Both the position numbers and the translations under genes were made by a program. 27,323 nucleotides of DNA, taken from contig CAYYDP010000016.1 of the NCBI GenBank assembly GCA_964470645.1, forward strand, positions 1-27,323, given 5' to 3'. Of the stretch, positions 3,292 through 26,863 are shown piece by piece. This stretch comes from an uncultured Gammaproteobacteria bacterium. GTDB lineage: Bacteria > Patescibacteriota > Patescibacteriia > CAYYDP01. A model generated the notes under the pieces. That model ran no database searches. It was not told where the DNA came from and worked only from the letters and a program-made list of their open reading frames with translations. The first letter of the stretch is position 1. Every line of letters starts with the position of its first letter.

Positions 3292-4506
3292 ATGCTATCG
3301 CTTCGAAGAATATTGGTAATTGGGATGATGGCGTTTGCAGGCGTTTCGTTTGGATTGGTCTGCATTCATACTGCACTTGCGCAATACAAGCTCTCGCCAG
3401 GTGATTTGATGGTAAGTACAGAGGCGTTTCGTTCCTATATGGATATCCAGGATGTCCCGATCGCTGTTCCTACCGTTATTGAGGTTCCGTTACCCCAAGA
3501 GATTCTTGAGCGTCCAGAGGCGATGGTACGCGATCTTTCGGTATTGTCGGTTGAACCGAGTTATATAAAACGGAGGACTTCCATAAGTCAGCCTTTGATG
3601 AATATAGAAACCATTCCAGCGGTAGCTAGTTCAAGAATGTTAATTGATGGAGACACTCGTACGTATGCGCAGTTTGAGGTGCCCGAACGTGAACTAGGAA
3701 GTGTGCAACTTATCATGAATACCTCATCTCCCATCACCACTGATGCGTTTACACTACTTTTGGATCAGTACGTCGCACTCCCCACGTCAATAGAGATACG
3801 AGCTTTGACATCTCAAGGTAATTTTTTGGTTGTTGCAAGGAGATTGATGGATCAGCAAACAGTGCGTTTTCCTCGTACCACGGCCTCACGGTGGACTATC
3901 ACATTGACCTACGGTCAGCCTCTGCGAATTAGTGAAGCGCGTTTGGTGGAGAGCGGGATCGTTGGGGAACAATCGTTTGGCGTTCGGTTTCTAGCCCAAC
4001 CCGGTCACACATACCGGGTTTATGTGGATCCTGATCGAAATCCGCAGATTCCCTATATCCGCGAATCACCAAATTTATCATCTGACCAGGACATACTTTC
4101 AATTTCTTCAACACCCCTGCGTCAAAACCCTGAATATATAATTGCCGACGCTGATCGGGACGGTCATCCCGATATTCGAGATAACTGCGTTACGGTTTCA
4201 AATTCAGACCAACGGGACGTTAATTTCAATGGTAGGGGTGATGCATGTGATGATTTTGATCGAGACGGGGTGATTAATTCGTTGGATAATTGCATGAATG
4301 ATCCAAACAGTGCACAGTCTGATGAGGATGGTGATAGGATTGGTGACGCGTGTGACCAAGAAGAAAGTCGAATAACCGAGCGACATGCATGGATCCCATG
4401 GGCGGGAATTGGGTTTGCCGCTCTCGTTTTGGTTGTACTTGTTATTTTATCCATGAAGAACCCACAGAAGGTTGAACGAGATCGGGACGCGACAACTGAA
4501 AAATAA
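3292..4506 (+). CDS. secreted, C-terminally anchored protein with thrombospondin type-3 (Ca-binding) repeats; the N-terminal part may be DUF3999/discoidin-like
   Basis: Signal or anchor sequence LRRILVIGMMAFAGVSFGLVCIHTALA. TSP3 motifs DADRDGHPDIRDNC, DQRDVNFNGRGDACD, DFDRDGVINSLDNC and SDEDGDRIGDACD. C-terminal TM helix WAGIGFAALVLVVLVILS. ATG 3292 lies 5 nt after the upstream stop. The track start at 3271 is a TTG that overlaps the upstream gene. Confidence 0.8.
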   Translation: MLSLRRILVIGMMAFAGVSFGLVCIHTALAQYKLSPGDLMVSTEAFRSYMDIQDVPIAVPTVIEVPLPQEILERPEAMVRDLSVLSVEPSYIKRRTSISQPLMNIETIPAVASSRMLIDGDTRTYAQFEVPERELGSVQLIMNTSSPITTDAFTLLLDQYVALPTSIEIRALTSQGNFLVVARRLMDQQTVRFPRTTASRWTITLTYGQPLRISEARLVESGIVGEQSFGVRFLAQPGHTYRVYVDPDRNPQIPYIRESPNLSSDQDILSISSTPLRQNPEYIIADADRDGHPDIRDNCVTVSNSDQRDVNFNGRGDACDDFDRDGVINSLDNCMNDPNSAQSDEDGDRIGDACDQEESRITERHAWIPWAGIGFAALVLVVLVILSMKNPQKVERDRDATTEK

Positions 4507-9203: not shown

Positions 9204-11777
9204 TCACTTTTTTTCAAATATGAAAACACTATTTGATCCAATTTGTTTCACGTCTGCCAGATCAGCAAGCGTTATTTTTGATTGGGGAGAGATTTTCCAG
9301 TAATCATTTAGCACAAGATAGAGTTCATTGATCTCGTAGGTCTCGAAAATTTCATCAATGAGTTTTTGTGATGGCTCTTTGGTCATTTGTAAGTAATACC
9401 TATGCGCTTGAGACGAGATGGGAATGGAGTAGAAAAATTGAGGGTTTAGTGTTGAGGGCTTTGAGTATAGATTAGTTGAGGAGTCATATCTGCGTTGATC
9501 CGCGTTTTTATCCGCGCCTGCCCCGTAGTGTTCCCATACTTGGGATCTACTACCGGGGTTGATCCGCGTTTTGACGTATTGTGAAAATCCAAACTGATCG
9601 AGAGCTGCTGCGCCGACTGATTGGTTGGCAAGGACGAGATATGGCTTTGAAGCCCGTTCTTCGATTTGTTGGACAGTAGCGAGATCGTCTTGTGAAGTGA
9701 GGTATCCTTTAAAATTCACGAACCGGTCAGAGTGGGGGAATTGAAGGTAAATGTTTGAGACAATAAGAACTGAAAGGAAGATGAAAAAAGAAAGATGGAA
9801 AGTTTTTTTTGATCCATGATCCCCGCCTCGACTCGCTCGCTCGTCGGGCGAGGCGGGCATGATCCATGATCCATGATTGAGGAATAACGGCCATAGAAAT
9901 ACAAGCGAGATTGAGAAGAGGCGCGTGAAGAGTTGGATGTGTTCGCCCGCGGTGACATTTGGTTGGAGATAGAATAGCACGATGAGGGATGATGCAAAGA
10001 TTGAGAGGAAGGAAAGAAGATAGGGTATAGGGTATAGGGTATAGGGTATAGTGAAACTTTCACCATTCCCATGTTCTTCTTCGTCATTCCCGCCCCGACG
10101 CTTTGGTCGGGATAAACTCCAGCGGGAATCCAGAAAAGAAAAGATTGAAGTCTTTTTGTTTTGGTTGTTTACTCCGACGCTTCGGCACCGACGTTCCGAC
10201 CCGAAGACGGCGTCGGAATCGGAGTCCCGACCCGAAGACGGCGTCGGGGTTTCTGGATCCTCGATCAAAGCCGAGGATGACGGGTCTGTTGGTTTTTGTG
10301 TTTTTTTAATTTTTTGAACAGTCGCAAACAAGATAACAATGAAAAACAATAGATAGTAGTTCTTACCAAAAAAATGAATAAATGAAAGTGGGTCGGTATA
10401 GCGGATCCAACTTGGGGCAACGATAGATTTGATTGCGCTGTACGCTTCGGGGTTGAGGTTGATCGAAGTTATTGCAAATTGAGAGTCGAGATTATTATTG
10501 AGGATGAGTGCGCCGGGAATTGCAATTGTGGATGCAATGAAAGCAATGATTACAAGGAATAGGAGCATTGCCTGAACAATGAGTCTTCCAAGCGCTACGT
10601 ATTCGTCGCTTTGAAGTTTCGTGATCGTGGTTTGTGAAATTGAATACATGATGTTCCAACCCAAGAAAACGAATGCGGCAATTCCGGGGAAGGGATGGCA
10701 GAGAAAGGAGGCGAGGGCAAGGAGAGAATAACGTATAAAGGTGTAACGAGACCAATTTCCCACTCGGAAACTCGGCTCGCCAAAAGCGACCAGTTTCGTC
10801 TGCTCTGCCTCAGCGATCACTTGATCACTCGCAGGCGAAACCTGCCTCAAACAGTCCTCGTGGGGAAATTGTCTCACTCCTCCTTTCTCTTGCCAAACGA
10901 GCAGAAGCAAAAGGAGGAGGAAAAAGATTCCTAACGATTGTGGTACAGTCGTCGTAAGAATGGAGAACGGGAGAAGAAAGAAGAAGGCGAGAGATTTATT
11001 TCCAAATGTTTTTTTGAGTAGCCACGGGATAGCGAGGATGACGAGAATGGGTAGGAGGAAAAAATTGATCTGTTTCACTCGAAGTTGTGTTAACGTTGAA
11101 ATGACAGACACAAGTCCGTACTCACCCGAGTAAAGTATGGTTTTTGGTTGGATGTGACCCTCTGTGACAATCGTTTGCTCTGCTGCTCGGTGAACGAAAG
11201 GATCGTAGTCGGTTCCGATGGGGAAGAGGACAGGGAGGATGAGAAAGATTAAAGGGAAGATGATACAAGATAGAAGATACAAGACGCTGTTTGATTGTAA
11301 TTTGGTAATCAGGTAATTAGGTAATTGAGTGATTTGGAATCTTTTATCGAGTTTCACTGATGATGGTAGGTACGTAATGAACACAAGAATCAGTACGGCT
11401 GGTAAGAACCAATTGGGAAGAATGGACCAGACCAGGGGGCTGGATGATGTTGTTTGGAAGTGAGAATAGAAAAAGGCGATGATCAGAACTGCAAGAGGGT
11501 ATAGGGTATAGGGTATAGGGTATAGGTATTTTCTGAACTTCCTCCGTGTCATTGCGAGAAGGCTTTGCGACGAAGCAATCTCATTCTGCCGATGACCGGC
11601 ATTTGAGGTCGTCACACTCATTGCTACTTCGCTCGCGATGACAGTTTTTTTAGCTATCAGTGTTAGTATGATTGAAAGTCCAAGTACTAGCCAGGAAGTG
11701 AGCGTGGTTACTTCAAAAAAAACCACAAGAACACTCGAGAGAATCGTCAGTAAGGAAAGAAAACTGATGTATAGCAT
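9204..11777 (-). CDS. large polytopic membrane protein with a C-terminal soluble domain, interrupted in frame by repeat elements
   Basis: A single 857-aa ORF with many hydrophobic helices. Low-complexity, non-membrane-like stretches coincide exactly with the palindromic elements and heptamer arrays listed separately. No family recognised; a GT-C-like or other membrane enzyme is only a guess. Confidence 0.6.
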   Translation of the reverse strand: MLYISFLSLLTILSSVLVVFFEVTTLTSWLVLGLSIILTLIAKKTVIASEVAMSVTTSNAGHRQNEIASSQSLLAMTRRKFRKYLYPIPYTLYPLAVLIIAFFYSHFQTTSSSPLVWSILPNWFLPAVLILVFITYLPSSVKLDKRFQITQLPNYLITKLQSNSVLYLLSCIIFPLIFLILPVLFPIGTDYDPFVHRAAEQTIVTEGHIQPKTILYSGEYGLVSVISTLTQLRVKQINFFLLPILVILAIPWLLKKTFGNKSLAFFFLLPFSILTTTVPQSLGIFFLLLLLLLVWQEKGGVRQFPHEDCLRQVSPASDQVIAEAEQTKLVAFGEPSFRVGNWSRYTFIRYSLLALASFLCHPFPGIAAFVFLGWNIMYSISQTTITKLQSDEYVALGRLIVQAMLLFLVIIAFIASTIAIPGALILNNNLDSQFAITSINLNPEAYSAIKSIVAPSWIRYTDPLSFIHFFGKNYYLLFFIVILFATVQKIKKTQKPTDPSSSALIEDPETPTPSSGRDSDSDAVFGSERRCRSVGVNNQNKKTSIFSFLDSRWSLSRPKRRGGNDEEEHGNGESFTIPYTLYPIPYLLSFLSIFASSLIVLFYLQPNVTAGEHIQLFTRLFSISLVFLWPLFLNHGSWIMPASPDERASRGGDHGSKKTFHLSFFIFLSVLIVSNIYLQFPHSDRFVNFKGYLTSQDDLATVQQIEERASKPYLVLANQSVGAAALDQFGFSQYVKTRINPGSRSQVWEHYGAGADKNADQRRYDSSTNLYSKPSTLNPQFFYSIPISSQAHRYYLQMTKEPSQKLIDEIFETYEINELYLVLNDYWKISPQSKITLADLADVKQIGSNSVFIFEKK
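9811..9877. repeat. GC-rich hairpin flanked by GATCCAT heptamer repeats, inside the CDS
   Basis: A 9-bp stem, cccgcctcg (9822-9830) pairing with cgaggcggg (9849-9857). gatccat units lie at 9811, 9861 and 9868. It encodes SWIMPASPDERASRGGDHGS between two TM segments. Confidence 0.75.
10020..10052. repeat. (GGGTATA)x4 heptanucleotide tandem array inside the CDS
   Basis: Perfect units at 10023, 10030, 10037 and 10044. They encode IPYTLYPIPY on the minus strand. Confidence 0.9.
10083..10281. repeat. composite ~200-bp GTCAT...ATGAC palindromic element inside the CDS, homologous to the intergenic element downstream of clpB
   Basis: 10083-10131 (gtcattcccgc...gcgggaatcc) matches 26676-24. The A-rich/T-rich core resembles 26786-26835. 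10255-10281 (ggatcctcgatcaaagccgaggatgac) matches 26836-62. It also carries a duplicated hairpin, ccgacccgaagacggcgtcgg x2. Confidence 0.8.
11497..11529. repeat. (GGGTATA)x4 heptanucleotide tandem array inside the CDS, second copy
   Basis: Perfect units at 11497, 11504, 11511 and 11518. They encode YLYPIPYTLYP. Confidence 0.9.
11547..11643. repeat. 97-bp TGTCAT...ATGACA palindromic element inside the CDS
   Basis: tgtcattgcgag...cgaagcaat on the left versus attgctacttcgctcgcgatgaca on the right. It encodes TVIASEVAMSVTTSNAGHRQNEIASSQSLLAMT after the first two TM helices. Confidence 0.75.
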
Positions 11778-11827: not shown

Positions 11828-11854
11828 TTGGCACTCTTGACATGAGAGTGCCAA
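11828..11854. promoter_or_regulatory. CIRCE operator (HrcA binding site)
   Basis: TTGGCACTC-N9-GAGTGCCAA is a perfect 9-bp inverted repeat with a 9-nt spacer. It differs from the TTAGCACTC-N9-GAGTGCTAA consensus by one position per arm and lies 17 nt upstream of the hrcA ATG. Confidence 0.85.
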
Positions 11855-11865
11855 TTTTTTATTAT
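11837..11865 (+). promoter_or_regulatory. candidate sigma-70-type promoter overlapping CIRCE
   Basis: TTGACA (11837-11842, inside the CIRCE spacer), a 17-nt spacer, then TATTAT (11860-11865). The -10 element ends 6 nt before the hrcA ATG, implying a leaderless or near-leaderless mRNA. Confidence 0.5.
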
Positions 11866-11871
11866 TGACTC

Positions 11872-12573: not shown

Positions 12574-12584
12574 CAAAGGGTACA

Positions 12585-12669
12585 GCGTTTAGTGTTTAGG
12601 GTGTTAGGGAAGACTCTTTCAACGTACACCATGGTTTTGACTAAACGCTAAGCGCTTTACGCTAAACGT
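12585..12669. repeat. imperfect palindrome with heptad-periodic arms (CGTTTAG-type units), fills the hrcA-grpE spacer
   Basis: Left arm cgtttag tgtttag ggtgttag. Right arm ctaaacg ctaagcg ctttacg ctaaacg. The outermost 7 bp pair perfectly (12586-92 with 12662-68). Confidence 0.7.
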
Positions 12670-12676
12670 ATATTTT

Positions 12677-13276
12677 ATGCTTGATCAAAACATCGAAGAA
12701 AAAAACACAAACCAACAGGAAGCCAACAGTGGTCCCACCCAGTCACAGCAACAGTCACATGATGGTTCACAAGCAGAAATTGAACTCTTAAAGACGCAAG
12801 TTGCGGAGTTAACGAACAATTGGAAACGGGCAGCCGCTGATTTGGCAAATTACAAGAAGCAGATTGAAGAGGAAAAGAAGTCGTGGGCGTTGTTTTCACT
12901 GGTGGGATCGGTTTCACAGTTTTTGCCGATTTTGGATAATATGAATTCAGCACTCGCGGCACAACCAAACCCTGATTCCGTAGATGGTCCGTTTAAACAG
13001 TTTTTGATAGGACTGGGTCACATTCAAAAACAGTTCAGTGACGTGCTTACCCAAATGGGGGTTGTCGAGATCTCTGCCGCGGGAGCAGTGTTCGATCCTT
13101 CCATTCACGAATCCGTGAGTACGGATGGGGAGGTGACGGGGAAGGGCTCACTCGTGGTTGCGTCCGTATTGACAAAGGGATATCAGTTTCAGGGACAGTT
13201 GATTCGTCCAGCGAGAGTCGTGGTGAAAGAGGTGATTGAAAATGTGCCAATGACCGATACGCCAATGAACCAATAA
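12677..13276 (+). CDS. grpE: nucleotide exchange factor GrpE
   Basis: Coiled-coil N-terminal half (LKTQVAELTNNWKRAAADLANYKKQIEEEKK), a GrpE-like C-terminal beta domain (FDPSIHESV...GYQFQGQLIRPARVVV) and position between hrcA and dnaK. Confidence 0.9.
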   Translation: MLDQNIEEKNTNQQEANSGPTQSQQQSHDGSQAEIELLKTQVAELTNNWKRAAADLANYKKQIEEEKKSWALFSLVGSVSQFLPILDNMNSALAAQPNPDSVDGPFKQFLIGLGHIQKQFSDVLTQMGVVEISAAGAVFDPSIHESVSTDGEVTGKGSLVVASVLTKGYQFQGQLIRPARVVVKEVIENVPMTDTPMNQ

Positions 13277-13412
13277 ATTCCAAATAACAAATCACAAATT
13301 CCAAACAAATTCCAATGACCAAATACCAAAATCCAAAATAAAAAAGATCGAATGTTTGGAATTATGAATTTGAGATTTATTTGTGATTTGGTGCTTGGGA
13401 TTTGGGTTTTAA
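13275..13412. repeat. ~138-bp imperfect palindrome, CCAAA-rich 5' arm and TTTGG-rich 3' arm with ~7-nt periodicity
   Basis: 5' arm aaattcc aaataac aaatcac aaattcc ... aaatacc aaaatcc. 3' arm gtttgga attatga atttgag atttatt tgtgatt tggtgct tgggatt tgggttt. It starts on the grpE stop codon. Confidence 0.65.
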
Positions 13413-13896: not shown

Positions 13897-13912
13897 TTCC
13901 ACTGATACGCTG

Positions 13913-13938
13913 TTCCTCTCTCCATGGTGAGAGGGGAA
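13913..13938 (+). other. stem-loop downstream of hsp20 (terminator-like hairpin without a U tract)
   Basis: ttcctctctc pairs with gagaggggaa as a 10-bp stem including one G-U. The loop is about 6-7 nt and no T run follows. Confidence 0.5.
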
Positions 13939-13961
13939 TAGAAATGAGGGGGATGTGATTT

Positions 13962-14135
13962 AAACCCGAAGCACGAAGTACGAAATACGAAAAAAGAATG
14001 CAAAAATCAAATCTCAAAAGTCAAAATGTAAATGCAAAGTGCAAAATTCTCCATTTTGAATTATCATTTTGATATTTGATGTTTGAATTTTGATATTGAG
14101 TTTGTTTCGAGTTTCGATATTCGAATTTCGGATTT
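13962..14135. repeat. 174-bp heptad-periodic palindrome, copy A (paralog at 17491-17657)
   Basis: Nearly identical to copy B. 5' arm cccgaag cacgaag tacgaaa tacgaaa ... tcaaaag tcaaaat. 3' arm attttga ... gtttgaa ttttgat ... gagtttc gatattc gaatttc. It ends 9 nt before ATG 14145. Confidence 0.9.
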
Positions 14136-14144
14136 TTATCTCTT

Positions 14145-14474
14145 ATGTCCAATGATATTCTTAAGTTGAGCGTTGAATTGATCAAGAAGTGTCCCATGTG
14201 CGGTCAGGCGTGCACCCCGGGCGAGGGTGAAGTGTTGGAGACCTCGGACCAGCATTCTGTCACGTTTTTTCGATGTGACGCTTGTCAGAGCTCGTTTTTG
14301 ATGAATCTGATCCACTACCCATTCGGAGTTATTGGCTCGTTATTATTCACGGACCTGAATTCAAAGGAAATCAGGAAATTTCAGCATTCACCCCTTGTGG
14401 ACGAGGATGATGTACTCGAGATACACACAACTATACATAATCAACAAGTCGAAAGATTATTCATGAAACATTGA
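14145..14474 (+). CDS. hypothetical small zinc-ribbon protein (CPMC...CDAC)
   Basis: 109-aa ORF co-directional in the heat-shock cluster with two CxxC pairs. Its ATG sits at the same offset from the palindrome as the dnaJ ATG does from copy B. No family recognised. Confidence 0.5.
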   Translation: MSNDILKLSVELIKKCPMCGQACTPGEGEVLETSDQHSVTFFRCDACQSSFLMNLIHYPFGVIGSLLFTDLNSKEIRKFQHSPLVDEDDVLEIHTTIHNQQVERLFMKH

Positions 14475-14485
14475 TAAATAAAGGT

Positions 14486-14548
14486 TGTCATGGTGAGCCT
14501 GTCGAACCATTACGTTAATGTAGCCCTTCGACTTAGCTCAGGGTGACA
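14486..14548. repeat. REPIN-like inverted doublet of GTCAY-headed stem-loops directly upstream of dnaK
   Basis: tgtcATGGTgagcctgtcgaACCAT ... CCCTtcgacttagctcAGGGtgaca. Two units sit in inverted orientation with a conserved loop GAGCNTGTCGA and different but self-complementary stems. Confidence 0.8.
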
Positions 14549-14556
14549 GAAGAACT

Positions 14557-16863: not shown

Positions 16864-16932
16864 AAATTTTACTAAGTCTAATCGGGTGCGTATTGCGGCG
16901 CGGTACGCCCTTCGTTAGTAATAAAAGCAAAT

Positions 16933-17035
16933 TGTCATTGCGAGCGAGTCCTGGAACAGAGTGATAGGATAGGGTCCAGTAATTGTGTGTTGAACTTTGG
17001 ATCCTATCGCTCCCATTGGTTGCTCCAGGATGACA
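16933..17035. repeat. 103-bp TGTCAT...ATGACA palindromic element
   Basis: tgtcattgcgagcgagtcctggaacagagtgataggat ... atcctatcgctcccattggttgctccaggatgaca. Intergenic. Confidence 0.8.
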
Positions 17036-17050
17036 CGAACTAATCTAGAG

Positions 17051-17155
17051 TGTCATGTTGGAACGGAGCGTAGCGGAGTGATAGCATCCAATTTTGTCTC
17101 GTGAGATGTGGATTCCATCCGCTATCGTACTACGTACTCCAGCGTCCAGAATGAC
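17051..17155. repeat. 105-bp TGTCAT...ATGAC palindromic element, diverged tandem neighbour
   Basis: tgtcatgttggaacggagcgtagcggagtgatagcatcca ... tggattccatccgctatcgtactacgtactccagcgtccagaatgac. Confidence 0.75.
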
Positions 17156-17189
17156 TACTTTTAAATTTAGGATGACAGCCAATATTATT

Positions 17190-17492
17190 ATGTCCAACAA
17201 CAATCAACAACAAATTCAAATCCAGGCAAAGCCGGAAGAACTTCAAGGTCATTATTCGAATTTTTTTCAGGTGACGCATTTGAGCCGCGAAGAATTCTTG
17301 CTTGATTTTTTGTTTTTAGACGGTCCGCGCGGTGTGGGAGCGTTATCGAGCAGAGTCATTGTAAGCCCCCAGCAGGCGAAGCGAGTGCTTGCCGCGCTGC
17401 AGGAGAATGTAAAGAATTATGAAGAAAAATTCGGCGCGATTGAAATGGGTCAGAAGCAGGAGGAGAAGGAAGTAGGGTTCAAAATACAATAA
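17190..17492 (+). CDS. DUF3467 family protein
   Basis: MSNNNQQQIQIQAKPEELQGHYSNFFQVTHLSREEFLLDFLF...SRVIVSPQQAKRVLAALQENVKNYEEKFG matches my recollection of the DUF3467 pattern. The track start at 17094 runs into the palindromic element, so ATG 17190 is used. Confidence 0.75.
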   Translation: MSNNNQQQIQIQAKPEELQGHYSNFFQVTHLSREEFLLDFLFLDGPRGVGALSSRVIVSPQQAKRVLAALQENVKNYEEKFGAIEMGQKQEEKEVGFKIQ

Positions 17493-17657
17493 ATCCGAAG
17501 CACGAAGTACGAAATACGAAAAAGAATGCAAATCTCAAATCTCAAAAGTCAAAATGTAAATGCAAAGTGCAAAATTCTCCATTTTGAATTATCATTTTGA
17601 TATTTGATGTTTGAATTTTGATATTGTTTCGAGTTTCGATATTCGAATTTCGGATTT
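17491..17657. repeat. 167-bp heptad-periodic palindrome, copy B (paralog of 13962-14135)
   Basis: It differs from copy A by about 3 substitutions, a 1-nt A-run indel and a 6-nt indel in the 3' arm. It starts on the DUF3467 stop codon and ends 7 nt before the dnaJ ATG. Confidence 0.9.
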
Positions 17658-17664
17658 TATAGTT

Positions 17665-18807
17665 ATGGCAAAGGATTACTATTCCATCCTGGGTGTTTCA
17701 AAAAGCGCGTCGCAAGACGAGATCAAGAAAGCGTTTCGAGCTCTCGCGCACAAGTATCATCCGGACAAAGGAACGGGTGATGAGGCGAAGTTCAAAGAGG
17801 TGAATGAGGCGTATCAGGTTCTTTCGGACGAAACGAAACGGCAACAGTATGACCAATACGGTCAGACGTTTGAAGATGCGCAGAGAAACGGAGGGGCTGG
17901 GTTTGGTGGGTTTGGCGGAGGACAAGGATTCCGGTGGGAAGACGTCGCTTCTCAATTCGGTGGACAGGGCGGGTTTCGTCAGGGGAATGTTGAGTTTGAT
18001 TTTGGAAATCTCAATGACGTGTTTGGGGATTTTTTTGGATTTGGCGGAGGTCGTTCCAGCACGGGGCAGCGAAGTGCTTCAAAACACGGGAGGGATTTGG
18101 AGATGTCGGTTGAACTCACGCTGGAGGAAGCATTTTTTGGTTTGAAAAAAGAATTATCGTTTGAGTCGTTTGAATTGTGTCATGAGTGCGATGGCAGCGG
18201 TGCGGATCGTACTGCGGGAACCAAAGCCTGTCACGCATGCAAAGGCTCGGGTGAAGTAGCCCATACTCAGCGCAGTGTGTTCGGAGTGTTTCAGACCCGT
18301 GGAATTTGTTCAACATGCGAAGGAGCTGGCGTGATTGTGGAGAAAGCGTGCACTGCGTGTAAGGGCAAAGGAAGAGTGCTTAAGAATCGGACATTGACTG
18401 TGAAGATTCCTGAAGGTGTTGAGGACGGAGTTTCCATCAGATTGCGCAACGAGGGTGAAGCGGGAGAGAAAGGCGCGGATGCGGGTGATTTGTATGTGAA
18501 AGTTCGAGTGAAGAATACGACCGAGTTTAAGCGATTGGGAGCTGATTTGGAATATCGGTTACCACTCCACATCACCGATGCTGCGCTCGGTACCAAAATA
18601 GATGTGAAATTATTTGACGAAGAAATTCGTGTGAAAGTGCCGGAGGGAACGCAGAGCGGAACTATCATTAAAATTAAAGGGAAAGGTATGCCCCATATGC
18701 AGTCGCGCGGACGGGGGGATTTGTTGGTGCGAGTCGATGTTGAGACACCGAAACATCTTTCAAAGAAGCAGAAAGAGTTGCTTGAGGAACTCAAGAGAGA
18801 ATCATGA
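17665..18807 (+). CDS. dnaJ: molecular chaperone DnaJ (type I Hsp40)
   Basis: J domain DYYSILGV...YHPDK, a G/F-rich linker, four CxxCxGxG zinc-finger motifs ([32 protein letters not shown]) and a C-terminal domain. The track start at 17611 lies inside the palindrome, so ATG 17665 (MAKDYY) is used. Confidence 0.95.
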
Positions 18808-18904
18808 AGCAAGAATCATGAATCATGGATATGGCAAGCGGAGCTTGCCTTTGGAAACACCGTCGTGTTTCCACGCATAATTCGTAATTCTTAATACTTG
18901 ATTC
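18799..18904. repeat. ~106-bp palindrome: GAATNNN heptad arms enclosing two perfect GC hairpins
   Basis: Left arm gaatcat gaagcaa gaatcat gaatcat. Hairpins ggcaagc-gga-gcttgcc (18833-49) and ggaaacac-cgtc-gtgtttcc (18853-72). Right arm cataatt cgtaatt cttaata cttgatt c. It overlaps the dnaJ stop. Confidence 0.75.
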
Positions 18905-18917
18905 AAGATCGTGTGAA

Positions 18918-19769
18918 ATGATACGAATCTTGGACAATTGGGTTACATCCGGATACGCGAATATGATTGGTAAAAAATATCTGAAGGTCTTCACTAACGC
19001 CATTCAAGAAACCCTTCAGTACCGGGTGAATTTTTTATTTGGGCGAATTACTAATTTAGTGGTACTTGTGTCAATGTATTTTCTTTGGATGAATGTGTTC
19101 GTGGATCCCGGCACGCAGTTTTTCGGATTTTCCAAGCCGGATATTATCACATACGTTCTTGGGGCTAGTGTTGTGTATGCGATTGTGTTTGTCCAATCCA
19201 TGAACCCAATCGCGTTTGAGATCGCCGATGGGGACTTGTCCAATTATCTCGTGAAACCGATAAGCTATTTCAAATATTGGTTTTCTCGAAACAACGCGGA
19301 GCGCGTTCTGCTCCTGGTCATGTCGTTTGTTGAAATTGGAATTATTTCATTGTTCATAGATCGTTCTATGATTGTGATTCAATCGGACGTTAGTGTCTTA
19401 TGTGTTTTTGTGGTTTCGGTGGTTTTGTCTGTTGTTACCTATCAGCTGATCGATTTTTTACTTGGGACAACCGCGTTTTGGTTCTATAAATCATTTGGTC
19501 CTCGATTCGCTATCCAAACCACGGTGATGCTTGCGTCTGGGTATTTGTTTCCGATGAGCGTTTTACCGACGTGGCTACGGACCCCACTTGAATTGACCCC
19601 GTTTCCTTACTTAGTAAATTTTCCGGTGCAGTTGTATTTGGGGAAACTGTCAGCGGAACAAATCGTGACAGGGTTTACCATTTTGGCGTGTTGGATTGTT
19701 GGACTGTTTGTCGTGTATCGTGTCACCTGGATGAAAGGGCTGAGGATGTTTGAAGGGGCGGGGAGGTAA
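18918..19769 (+). CDS. ABC-2 family transporter permease (COG4587/COG3694-type, DUF990-like)
   Basis: N-terminus KKYLKVFTNAIQETLQYRVNFLFG followed by about 6 TM helices. It is paired with a second permease and a COG4586-like ATPase nearby. An alternative ATG lies at 18963. Confidence 0.8.
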   Translation: MIRILDNWVTSGYANMIGKKYLKVFTNAIQETLQYRVNFLFGRITNLVVLVSMYFLWMNVFVDPGTQFFGFSKPDIITYVLGASVVYAIVFVQSMNPIAFEIADGDLSNYLVKPISYFKYWFSRNNAERVLLLVMSFVEIGIISLFIDRSMIVIQSDVSVLCVFVVSVVLSVVTYQLIDFLLGTTAFWFYKSFGPRFAIQTTVMLASGYLFPMSVLPTWLRTPLELTPFPYLVNFPVQLYLGKLSAEQIVTGFTILACWIVGLFVVYRVTWMKGLRMFEGAGR

Positions 19770-19850
19770 CCTCCCCTAACCCCTCCTTCATAAGGAGGGG
19801 ACAGTATAAAATGTTCTCCCCTTACGAAGGGGAGAATGTAAGAGGGGTTA
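19767..19850. repeat. 84-bp structured element, copy 1 (two stem-loops closed by an outer stem)
   Basis: It starts on the TAA stop. SL1 cccctcctt-cat-aaggagggg, SL2 ttctcccctt-acg-aaggggagaa, outer pairing aacccct/aggggtt. It ends 7 nt before ATG 19858. Confidence 0.85.
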
Positions 19851-19857
19851 TGGATTT

Positions 19858-20643
19858 ATGAAACGTTATTTGAGCCTATTTCTGCAACTTGCGAACATGG
19901 CGTTTGGGAGCGCAACGTCTTCGCAACTTGATTTTTGGTCATTTATCATCGGCAAGCTCATTCGGATGGCGATCTGGCTCACGTTGATTTATTCACTCTT
20001 CAATTTTACTGATTCTGTTGCCGGATTTTCCAAAGGACAGATGGTCATGATGTACGCGACCATGAACTTGATTGATGTGGTGGTTCAGGTGTTGTTTTAT
20101 CGAGGGTTTCAGGCACTGCAACACGAGGTGCGAAAAGGGAATTTTGATTTTGTACTCACGAAGCCGGTAAATCCCATCGCGCTTGTTGCCTTTCGATACG
20201 TGGATCTTATGGATATTGTAACCCTACCATTTTCCATTGCAGTGTTGGTCTATGGAATTTCTTTGGTTGGGAGCGTTTCGTTGATGAATGTTGTCTTATA
20301 TGCGCTTCTTGTTATGAATGGGCTTGTTATTATTTTAGGGTTGTGTTTGATTTTCGGAGGTTTGACGTTTTACACCACGCAGATGGAAAATATTTGGTGG
20401 TTCTACCGCTACGGAATGCAGGTAGCTAGGTTTCCGGTTGATATTTATTCTGGGTTTTTTAGATTTTTCTTTACCTATGTCCTACCCATGGCGTTTATCG
20501 TAACCTTTCCTGCGAAAGCGTATTTTGGTGTTCTTTCATTGCCGTTTTATGTGTATTCATTTATTCTTTCAGTGGGTTTGGTGTTGTTCGGAGTTTGGTT
20601 TTGGAACCACGCGGTCGCCAGGTACCAAAGCGCAAGCTCCTAA
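19858..20643 (+). CDS. ABC-2 family transporter permease, second subunit
   Basis: 261 aa with about 6 TM helices and the same architecture as the preceding gene. Confidence 0.8.
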   Translation: MKRYLSLFLQLANMAFGSATSSQLDFWSFIIGKLIRMAIWLTLIYSLFNFTDSVAGFSKGQMVMMYATMNLIDVVVQVLFYRGFQALQHEVRKGNFDFVLTKPVNPIALVAFRYVDLMDIVTLPFSIAVLVYGISLVGSVSLMNVVLYALLVMNGLVIILGLCLIFGGLTFYTTQMENIWWFYRYGMQVARFPVDIYSGFFRFFFTYVLPMAFIVTFPAKAYFGVLSLPFYVYSFILSVGLVLFGVWFWNHAVARYQSASS

Positions 20644-20727
20644 CCTCCCCTAACCCCTCCTTCGTAAGGAGGGGACAGTAGGAAAGAGTGTCTCCCCCTT
20701 ACGAAGGGGGAGATGCAAGAGGGGGTT
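20641..20727. repeat. 87-bp structured element, copy 2
   Basis: taacctcccctaacccctccttcgtaaggagggg...tctcccccttacgaagggggaga...agagggggtt. It again starts exactly on the TAA stop of the permease. Confidence 0.85.
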
Positions 20728-20740
20728 TGTGTTTCGAGTT

Positions 20741-26675: not shown

Positions 26676-26724
26676 GTCATTCCCGCCCCGTATGAAACTA
26701 CGGGGTAAACTGCAACGGGAATCC
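26676..26724. repeat. nested stem-loop unit gtcattcccgc...gcgggaatcc (paralog of 10083-10131)
   Basis: Outer stem attcccg/cgggaat. Inner stem ccccgta/tacgggg, where the paralog has cccgac/gtcggg, which is also self-complementary. Confidence 0.8.
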
Positions 26725-26756
26725 AAACAACATAAATCAAAAAACAAAAAGATATA

Positions 26757-26863
26757 TGTCATCCTGAAGTTTCATTCAGGATCCAGAACAAAAAAAGAAA
26801 AGACTGAATTCTTTTTGTTTTTGTTTTTTATTTCTGGATCCCGTGTCAAAGCACGGGATGACA
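26757..26863. repeat. 107-bp TGTCAT...ATGACA palindromic element
   Basis: gtcatcctgaa-gtttca-ttcaggatcc, an A-rich then T-rich core, then ggatcccgtg-tcaaag-cacgggatgac. The two terminal stem-loops are in inverted orientation. Confidence 0.85.

Follow-up and report, generated by a model that had tools for sequence, protein, structure and literature searches.

Several classes of small repetitive element are known from the spaces between genes. The Correia elements of Neisseria (Correia repeat enclosed elements, CREE) are short MITEs (miniature inverted-repeat transposable elements) with inverted ends and TA flanks, which lie near start codons and are co-transcribed as hairpins. The Foldback (FB) transposons of eukaryotes have long inverted arms made of short tandem subrepeats, with arm length and interior variable. 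Bacterial intergenic DNA holds an excess of heptameric simple repeats, some of them in inverted pairs, and this excess has been attributed to slippage (PMC4692102). We analyse here a window of 27,323 nucleotides, which is the entire 27.3-kb NCBI contig CAYYDP010000016.1, and in it a foldback element built of 7-nt units (heptads) that stands twice in a heat-shock operon: copy A (13,962-14,136, plus strand), recognised by its fold and by alignment to its partner, in the spacer between hsp20 and the gene orf14145, and copy B (17,491-17,658, plus strand), found at the same junction in two related loci, in the spacer between a DUF3467 gene and dnaJ. On balance we think it probable that A and B are copies of a dispersed, horizontally spread family of MITE- or foldback-like elements and have been kept, perhaps even put to use, as hairpins between cistrons.

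The element is 168-175 bp long. Its two copies align over their full length, differing by three substitutions (a C/T exchange at the 5' terminus and AA/TC within the 5' arm) and by indels of 1 nt in an A-run, 6 nt (TGAGTT) in the 3' arm and 1 nt in a T-run at the 3' end; a first-pass annotation, made from the letters of the window alone, had listed all of these but the last. A repeat search returned a 108-nt block of 98% identity common to both, and the similarity breaks off sharply at TAAA...TTTTAT between flanks that are unrelated, bearing out the proposal in that annotation of a ~170-bp heptad palindrome present in two near-identical copies. Their placement just ahead of start codons was also read correctly: the end of copy A is 9 nt ahead of the orf14145 ATG at 14,145, and copy B, which begins inside the stop codon (TAA) of the DUF3467 gene, has its end 7 nt 5' of the dnaJ ATG at 17,665. 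The terminal modules of copy A, AAAYCCGAAGCACGAAGTACGAAATACGAAA on the 5' side (13,962-13,995; counterpart in copy B, 17,491-17,523) and TTGTTTCGAGTTTCGATATTCGAATTTCGGATTTT on the 3' side (14,100-14,136; counterpart 17,622-17,658), lie on the plus strand, as does the apical loop AAUUCUCCAU placed between the arms by minimum free energy structures (14,042-14,051; 17,570-17,579 in copy B).

That each arm is a run of 7-nt units is confirmed by a lag-7 match fraction of 0.61-0.68, compared with 0.33-0.37 in shuffled sequence (z 5.1-7.4; 0 of 2000 shuffles as high). The units are degenerate, with 69-88% matches in the period-7 arrays of Tandem Repeats Finder (TRF), and no period but 7 is strongly enriched in the window, its 10 tracts covering 484 bases, compared with 0-128 bases for periods 3-12. 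The RNA fold energy is -55.2 kcal/mol for copy A and -53.2 for copy B (z -5.2 and -6.6 relative to dinucleotide shuffles), and a further fold of copy A gave -49.6 kcal/mol with 60 pairs. Both copies are predicted to form 60-63 pairs, divided among 11 helices of 3-10 bp that for the most part begin at intervals of 6-8 nt; this is the helix of cores and mismatches, interrupted about every 7 nt, that had been drawn by eye. At the tips, AAATCCGAA and TTCGGATTT form a perfect terminal inverted repeat, and ~35 bp of the ends pair imperfectly. The sole open reading frame (ORF) crossing the element is a TTG-started extension of dnaJ, and its frame is lost in the related locus L019.

The element belongs to a family that extends beyond its own clade. 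Genome and metagenome collections were scanned with the 5' end of the element as query, and the matches resemble the element well past the query itself. The exact 26-mer CGAAGCACGAAGTACGAAATACGAAA of the 5' module is present in loci L005, L006, L013, L014 and L016; L014 also matches the 24-mer TTTCGATATTCGAATTTCGGATTT of the 3' module at every position, and L006 matches it with 2 mismatches. L014, located after a WD40-type gene, thus has the 26 nt of the 5' end and the 24 nt of the 3' end unchanged around a different interior; in L006 both ends are nearly identical, and the element ends 8 nt before an ATG in the interval between two genes of one strand that encode membrane or secreted proteins. 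A metagenome-assembled genome of Ca. Kuenenia (Planctomycetota) has the 5' end with similar CAAAA-type units, between genes for a histidine kinase and a sigma-54 response regulator and antisense to both. The 5' half is found beside nuoK/J-like genes in L016, which has the highest G+C among the loci (55%), and a register-shifted version of the 5' end between convergent genes in L008 (50% G+C). Members of the family thus occur in both orientations, at non-stress genes and in some cases at the 3' ends of genes. The positions at which the left end mismatches the reverse complement of the right end are constant across these genomes, as expected for ends recognised as sequence, and every member readable to both ends is flanked by TA...TA. 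The heptad itself is widespread, since non-palindromic tandem arrays of ACGAAGT/ACGAAAT occur in L007, L010, L013, L018 and one viral contig; that array was all that scans of viral contigs returned, the element being absent from them.

Short, non-coding and bounded by terminal inverted repeats that are conserved in L014 and L006, the element has these attributes in common with MITEs. It is most like the Correia elements and other MITEs in its length class of about 100-190 bp, inverted ends, TA flanks, intergenic or intercistronic position near start codons, presumed co-transcription as a long hairpin, near-identical copies within a genome and occupancy that varies between relatives. It shares no sequence with Correia elements, however; its arms are 7-bp arrays throughout and its interior is swapped while the ends stay constant, it is spread over several phyla rather than one genus, and it is a candidate MITE with no cognate transposase at the loci examined. 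The likeness to FB transposons is architectural only, these being eukaryotic, of kilobase scale and made of subrepeats of other sizes. Repetitive extragenic palindromic (REP) sequences and their compounds, bacterial interspersed mosaic elements (BIMEs) and REP doublets forming hairpins (REPINs), are likewise palindromic, extragenic and often intercistronic; they are transcribed with operons and affect mRNA stability, two features that our element may share. REP units are nevertheless only 20-40 bp long, with a conserved tetranucleotide head and mobilisation by REP-associated tyrosine transposases (RAYTs), whereas here the unit is 170 bp of heptads and no RAYT was found at any locus examined.

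With tandem 7-nt units in intergenic DNA, the element also resembles the heptameric simple sequence repeats. Those of the short tandemly repeated repetitive (STRR) type in cyanobacteria, GGGAATC in Xanthomonas and GGGGAYT in Nostoc resemble it in being strongly intergenic, in forming some inverted stem-loop pairs and in varying in length and sequence between close relatives (PMC4692102). They differ from it in being near-perfect iterations of one unit, without conserved termini of non-repetitive order common to several phyla, and they are not described as discrete duplicated units of ~170 bp. Two of the loci that we compared hold heptads of the STRR type: L024 has an AACAGTN palindrome 5' of dnaJ (106-153), a heptad known from cyanobacterial STRR-type repeats, and the Kuenenia locus L005 has a long CCTCAGT / TTGCCGA array (3,491-3,588). 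A described class of heptad-periodic palindromes with conserved ends was found neither in Rfam nor in the literature, where a general remark on heptameric repeats was all that came to light, and no paper was found that contains the end sequences as text; the first-pass annotation had likewise known of no such class.

Orthologous loci were recovered through homologues of orf14145, DnaK and DnaJ. Copy B stands at the same junction in L019 (DnaK 95% identical) and L023 (DnaJ 89% identical), and the DUF3467-dnaJ junctions of L001 and L024 hold other palindromes. At the junction of copy A, L002 has an unrelated heptad palindrome, L003 one of a third kind and L001 no heptad tract, making three different palindromes at this one junction across the window, L002 and L003 (L002 and L023 derive from the same sequencing run). 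Because relatives carry other heptad palindromes or none at the copy A junction, copy A is a recent duplicate, that is a paralogue, of copy B, which is the older, orthologous copy; A keeps an A since lost from B and has a private 6-nt insertion. L019 holds a third paralogue, a mosaic that shares the interior and is missing the CGAA ends, and the heptad identity of the 5' end of copy B drifts between orthologues (L023). L022, a less closely related Patescibacteria contig, shows the operon in its unoccupied state: the spacers there measure 3-30 nt, and the Shine-Dalgarno (SD) sequences are ordinary.

Copy B changes slowly. Between the window and L023 the element is 93-98% identical, as against 78-87% in the coding flanks on both sides, and 4-fold sites differ at 0.40-0.49; the identity peak sits over copy B, the best conserved stretch of the region, where change is slower than at 4-fold synonymous sites by a factor of roughly 5 to 10. 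We relied on the L023 comparison because divergence from L019 is confounded by mosaic identity, also inside dnaJ: from 16,900 to 19,300, tracts of 97-100% identity to L019 (e.g. 18,387-18,626 in dnaJ, and 18,747-19,016) alternate with others of 62-85%, which suggests frequent inter-strain homologous recombination or chimeric assemblies. Arms and pairs were compared in the four available sequences, with 59 predicted pairs. Variable columns number 13 in the 5' arm and 4 in the 3' arm (p = 0.028); five changes leave a G·U pair in place and six abolish pairing, and substitutions are not significantly concentrated in unpaired columns (Fisher p = 0.31). Taken together these sequences point to constraint, yet not specifically on RNA pairing.

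Heptad tracts of several families, including this one, gather in the heat-shock operon. In a census of nine clade loci, where a heptad tract had to reach a period-7 score of 0.70 or more over 35 nt, they were present at 15 of 36 junctions inside hrcA..dnaJ, at 4 of 12 operon borders and at 0 of 30 junctions elsewhere on those contigs, between other genes (Fisher p = 4e-5). Within this sample the enrichment is real, although the count includes orthologous junctions more than once and every locus was reached by way of heat-shock genes. The first-pass annotation had made its regulatory reading depend on enrichment at stress genes, and its two sides now come apart: heptad tracts are enriched in the heat-shock operon of the clade, but the sequence family to which A and B belong is not specific to stress genes, the same 26-nt 5' end being found at non-stress genes and in both orientations.

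We define the family by its ~35-bp ends, TAAATCCGAAGCACGAAGTACGAAATACGAAA on the left and TTGTTTCGNNTTTCGATATTCGAATTTCGGATTTA on the right, imperfect inverted repeats of each other that enclose a variable NCAAAAN / NTTTTGN interior. For its movement we infer a mechanism of mobility by which copy B would have entered the DUF3467-dnaJ junction before the lineage of the window split from its two relatives, changing slowly since, and copy A, the recent duplicate, would have landed immediately 5' of orf14145. Lying as they do inside a polycistronic unit controlled by HrcA and its operator CIRCE (controlling inverted repeat of chaperone expression), the copies are presumably transcribed. On the mRNA each would form an imperfect hairpin of ~60 pairs with its base reaching -8 of the next start codon, and by affecting ribosome access or the processing or stability of the mRNA it would most likely tune the downstream cistron structurally; that it is a dedicated temperature sensor is less likely. 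A bolder version, to which we attach little probability, would make heptad foldback hairpins a functional class of intercistronic elements in SD-poor Patescibacteria, seeded by mobility, kept by selection and spanning the distance from the stop codon to ~8 nt before the next start. A terminating upstream ribosome, or heat, would open the basal helices and expose the U-rich 3' arm as a loading site, setting the GrpE : DnaK : DnaJ stoichiometry or the temperature response without an SD sequence, and the CGAA-heptad ends would be read by a conserved factor.

A number of results weigh against a mobile family retained as a hairpin. No transposase or full-length parent element was seen at any locus examined, and copy B had no BLASTN match in collections of plasmids and phages. 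A target-site duplication cannot be proved, the TA at either flank being itself an extension of the palindrome and no empty site giving a clean alignment. The 27-kb contig holds two copies and L019 two related ones, and each foreign locus has only 1-2 members. Selfish DNA alone fails to explain copy B, because it is conserved far above what a neutral selfish insertion would be. Nor is there positive support for a role as RNA structure, because compensatory double changes occur at 0 of the 59 pairs across the four sequences and the folding energies of 18 spacers from the candidate phyla radiation (CPR), 12 of them favouring the sense strand by small differences, show no consistent asymmetry between sense and antisense. 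Finally, similar sequences could have originated independently by slippage in heptad arrays.

This last objection can be extended into an account that involves neither transposition nor function: heptameric repeats would grow locally, slippage expanding them and strand switching or gene conversion rendering them palindromic and copying them between spacers. Period 7 is indeed the sole enriched period in every locus examined, including those with the non-palindromic arrays (L007, L010, L013, L018), slippage is the cause to which heptameric over-representation has been attributed (PMC4692102), the elements are mosaics that share interiors or ends, and the drift of 5'-end heptads in L023 is of the kind that local growth would produce. 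What it does not predict is an exact 26-mer and 24-mer, with their units in fixed order (GCA, GTA, ATA ... / ... GAT ATT CGA ATT), in unrelated genomes; moreover the boundaries of the A/B duplication are sharp, the larger A/B indel is of 6 nt, not 7, and copy B falls short of the divergence expected of neutral arrays, which should be no slower than that of 4-fold sites. We regard this account as unlikely. Quite improbable, in our estimation, is a selected cis-element that a protein reads as sequence, in DNA or RNA, whether as CGAA/TTCG sites at 7-nt spacing or as an internal promoter or leader for dnaJ in the 3' arm, the palindrome being secondary. It would account for the constancy of the non-pairing end positions across genomes, for the smaller number of variable columns in the 3' arm and for copy B being the best conserved stretch between the window and L023; and TTGATA-17-GATATT, which the first-pass annotation had put forward as a possible promoter, stands in the 3' arm, the better conserved one, of both copies. 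But no candidate binding protein is known, members elsewhere lie in both orientations and at the 3' ends of genes, and the asymmetry of the arms comes from four sequences. The promoter candidate is itself a weak consensus match (9/12) of a kind common in this AT-rich DNA (18 found, 9.4 expected).

The same annotation had proposed a temperature-sensitive structure. As an intercistronic RNA thermometer, the AT-rich mismatched hairpin would melt on heat shock and free the ribosome-binding region of orf14145 and dnaJ, and several observations would suit it: the copies stand in an HrcA/CIRCE operon, each with its end 7-9 nt from the start codon that follows, heptad tracts cluster in the hrcA..dnaJ junctions, synonymous sites are far less conserved than copy B and above all than its 3' arm, the one near the start, and the stem base overlaps ~-8 to -18 of the ribosome footprint. 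Thermometers such as ROSE, fourU and the intercistronic ibpB and lcrF ones are also mismatched hairpins directly 5' of heat-shock genes in operons. These, however, are about 20-100 nt long, pair with the SD sequence and/or the AUG and melt at ~30-42 °C, whereas the present hairpin has ~170 nt and leaves the AUG outside it, the element ending at -8/-10 and the AUG after copy B being predicted 72% unpaired at 37 °C. There is no SD sequence 5' of orf14145 or dnaJ to mask, and the predicted unpaired probability of the element is 0.25-0.27 at 15 °C and 0.35-0.40 at 65 °C, a gradual rise that shows no transition. Rfam gave nothing at its gathering threshold: a permissive search returned only generic microRNA-like hairpins at 14-22 bits (cutoffs 43-211), and the best match of thermometer type, Lig_thermometer, reached 17 bits on the minus strand against a cutoff of 51.5 bits. 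Add to this the lack of covariation, the presence of the same family at non-stress genes and in antisense in other organisms, and a census that draws repeatedly on orthologous junctions from loci found via heat-shock genes, and a thermometer becomes very unlikely; with no pairing to an SD sequence or start codon, no predicted physiological melting and no curated family match, the element lacks the features that define one. Hairpins 5' of heat-shock genes should not be called thermometers from position alone. These alternatives are not all mutually exclusive with a mobile origin.

Other identities were tried and set aside. A terminator scan found nothing at either copy, and a stem of ~80 nt per arm, AU-rich, is not that of an intrinsic terminator. 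REP and REPIN sequences differ in size and architecture, and the window has no Y1-transposase-like gene. TIGR arrays consist of two alternating repeats of 8-12 nt with 9-nt spacers, in a 36-nt unit, beside a Nop-domain Tas gene (PMC12045711); TRF found no period-36 or period-18 array, and the window encodes no Nop-domain protein. Integron attC sites (RYYYAAC ... GTTRRRY) do not fit, the ends here reading TAAATCCGAAG ... TTTCGGATTTTAT and the flanking genes being a conserved operon, not cassettes. By eye, the spacing and orientation of motifs are also wrong for CtsR sites, for HspR-associated inverted repeats (HAIR) and for eukaryotic heat shock elements (HSE).

If A and B do belong to a dispersed mobile family, it would be a recognisable small foldback family, undescribed in the literature searched, that crosses phyla with almost unchanged ends, and that has repeatedly colonised heat-shock operon junctions in ultra-small bacteria whose genomes are otherwise tightly packed. 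It would then serve as a marker of horizontal DNA flow into CPR genomes, and copy B would be a possible case of a mobile hairpin retained under constraint. It would also offer a concrete system in which to study the translation and balance of cistrons in operons without SD sequences.

The contig comes from a Patescibacteria (CPR) bacterium, its DnaK being nearest to Patescibacteria proteins: 76-78% identity to those of Uhrbacteria, Kerfeldbacteria and unclassified Patescibacteria, and 74-75% to those of Kuenenbacteria. The heat-shock operon runs CIRCE, hrcA, grpE, hsp20, orf14145, dnaK, a small ORF, the DUF3467 gene and dnaJ, so that both copies lie, as first annotated, inside this operon. The CIRCE operator (TTGGCACTC-N9-GAGTGCCAA; 11,828-11,854, plus strand; 0 expected by chance in a pattern search) is perfect and embeds the operon's sole strong sigma-70-like promoter, an 11/12 match in a promoter scan. 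In this segment (11,828-11,871) the CIRCE loop holds the -35 hexamer of TTGACA-17-TATTAT and the hrcA ATG is just 6 nt past the -10 hexamer, and therefore the operon transcript may be leaderless or nearly so. The gene orf14145 (14,145-14,474, plus strand), 3' of copy A, encodes a conserved 109-aa CxxC...CxxC protein with homologues of 59-88% identity at the same operon position in L001-L003. The dnaJ gene (17,665-18,807, plus strand; Pfam DnaJ, DnaJ_CXXCXGXG and DnaJ_C), 3' of copy B, has its true start at ATG 17,665, its protein beginning MAKDYY and matching Pfam DnaJ. Most gene starts of the contig have no recognisable SD sequence, whereas L022, with its compact spacers, has clear AAGGAG sites in the same operon; between these two, loss of SD sequences coincides with spacers filled by palindromes.

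Palindromes of other families occupy the operon's other long spacers. Between hrcA and grpE lies a heptad palindrome of the GTTTAGN / CTAAACG family (12,577-12,668, plus strand, identified from its sequence), and this GTTTAGC/CTAAACG family is found between hsp20 and the orf14145 homologue in L003. The grpE-hsp20 spacer has one of the AAATTCC / GGAATTT family (13,275-13,410, plus strand; TRF period 7), L020 and L021 carrying a comparable element at their orthologous junction, and the spacer from dnaJ to an ABC-transporter gene has one of GAATCAT / ...TGATTC (18,793-18,910, plus strand; period-7 tracts) and is 99% identical in L019. A GC-rich palindrome, TTGTCATGGTGAGC..GTCGAACC...CCTTCGAC..GCTCAGGGTGACA, stands between orf14145 and dnaK in the window (14,480-14,550) and between dnaJ and the ABC-transporter gene in L023 (1,636-1,712); its presence at different junctions argues that spacer elements move in this clade. 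Across 18 intercistronic spacers (six in the window, the others in L001, L002, L003, L019, L020 and L006) the A-rich arm mostly comes first and the U-rich arm adjoins the downstream start (on the transcribed strand, by our reading, in ~15 of 18 heptad palindromes), the GTTTAGC family being the clearest exception.

Directly 3' of hsp20 (13,897-13,950) is a hairpin of C-rich and G-rich arms, TTCCTCTCTCC ATGG TGAGAGGGGAA, which has a single visible difference from its counterpart in L002 over ~60 nt and is of the same type as those after hsp20 in L001, L020, L021 and L022. Lacking a U tract, it does not qualify as a canonical terminator; a conserved structure for regulation or processing is a possibility. 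A further family of spacer repeats occupies consecutive junctions of an ABC-2 transporter operon, as pairs of GC-rich palindromic repeats (CCTCCCCTAACCCCTCCTTC.TAAGGAGGGGACA; CTCCCCTTACGAAGGGGAG) at 19,767-19,857 and 20,641-20,734. A second dispersed repeat family (CGGGATAAACTCCAGCGGGAATCCAG..., TTTCTGGATCCTCGATCAAAGCCGAGGATGAC) has copies, 78-89% identical, at 10,108-10,281, within a membrane-protein gene, and at 26,701-26,862, 3' of clpB. The membrane-protein gene (9,204-11,777, minus strand) encodes 857 aa with no Pfam match, 109 aa more than its 748-aa orthologue in L001, and the extra length consists of in-frame insertions, among them two runs of AGGGTAT x4 (10,020-10,051 and 11,496-11,526; ...PYTLYPIPY...) and GC-rich palindromic repeat units at ~9,820-9,860 and 10,100-10,290. 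The L001 orthologue has heptad runs of its own and, elsewhere in its sequence, a related peptide that derives from a repeat (LDSRFHGNDNGETG). The insertions in the 857-aa gene resemble the in-frame palindromic insertions known from Rickettsia.

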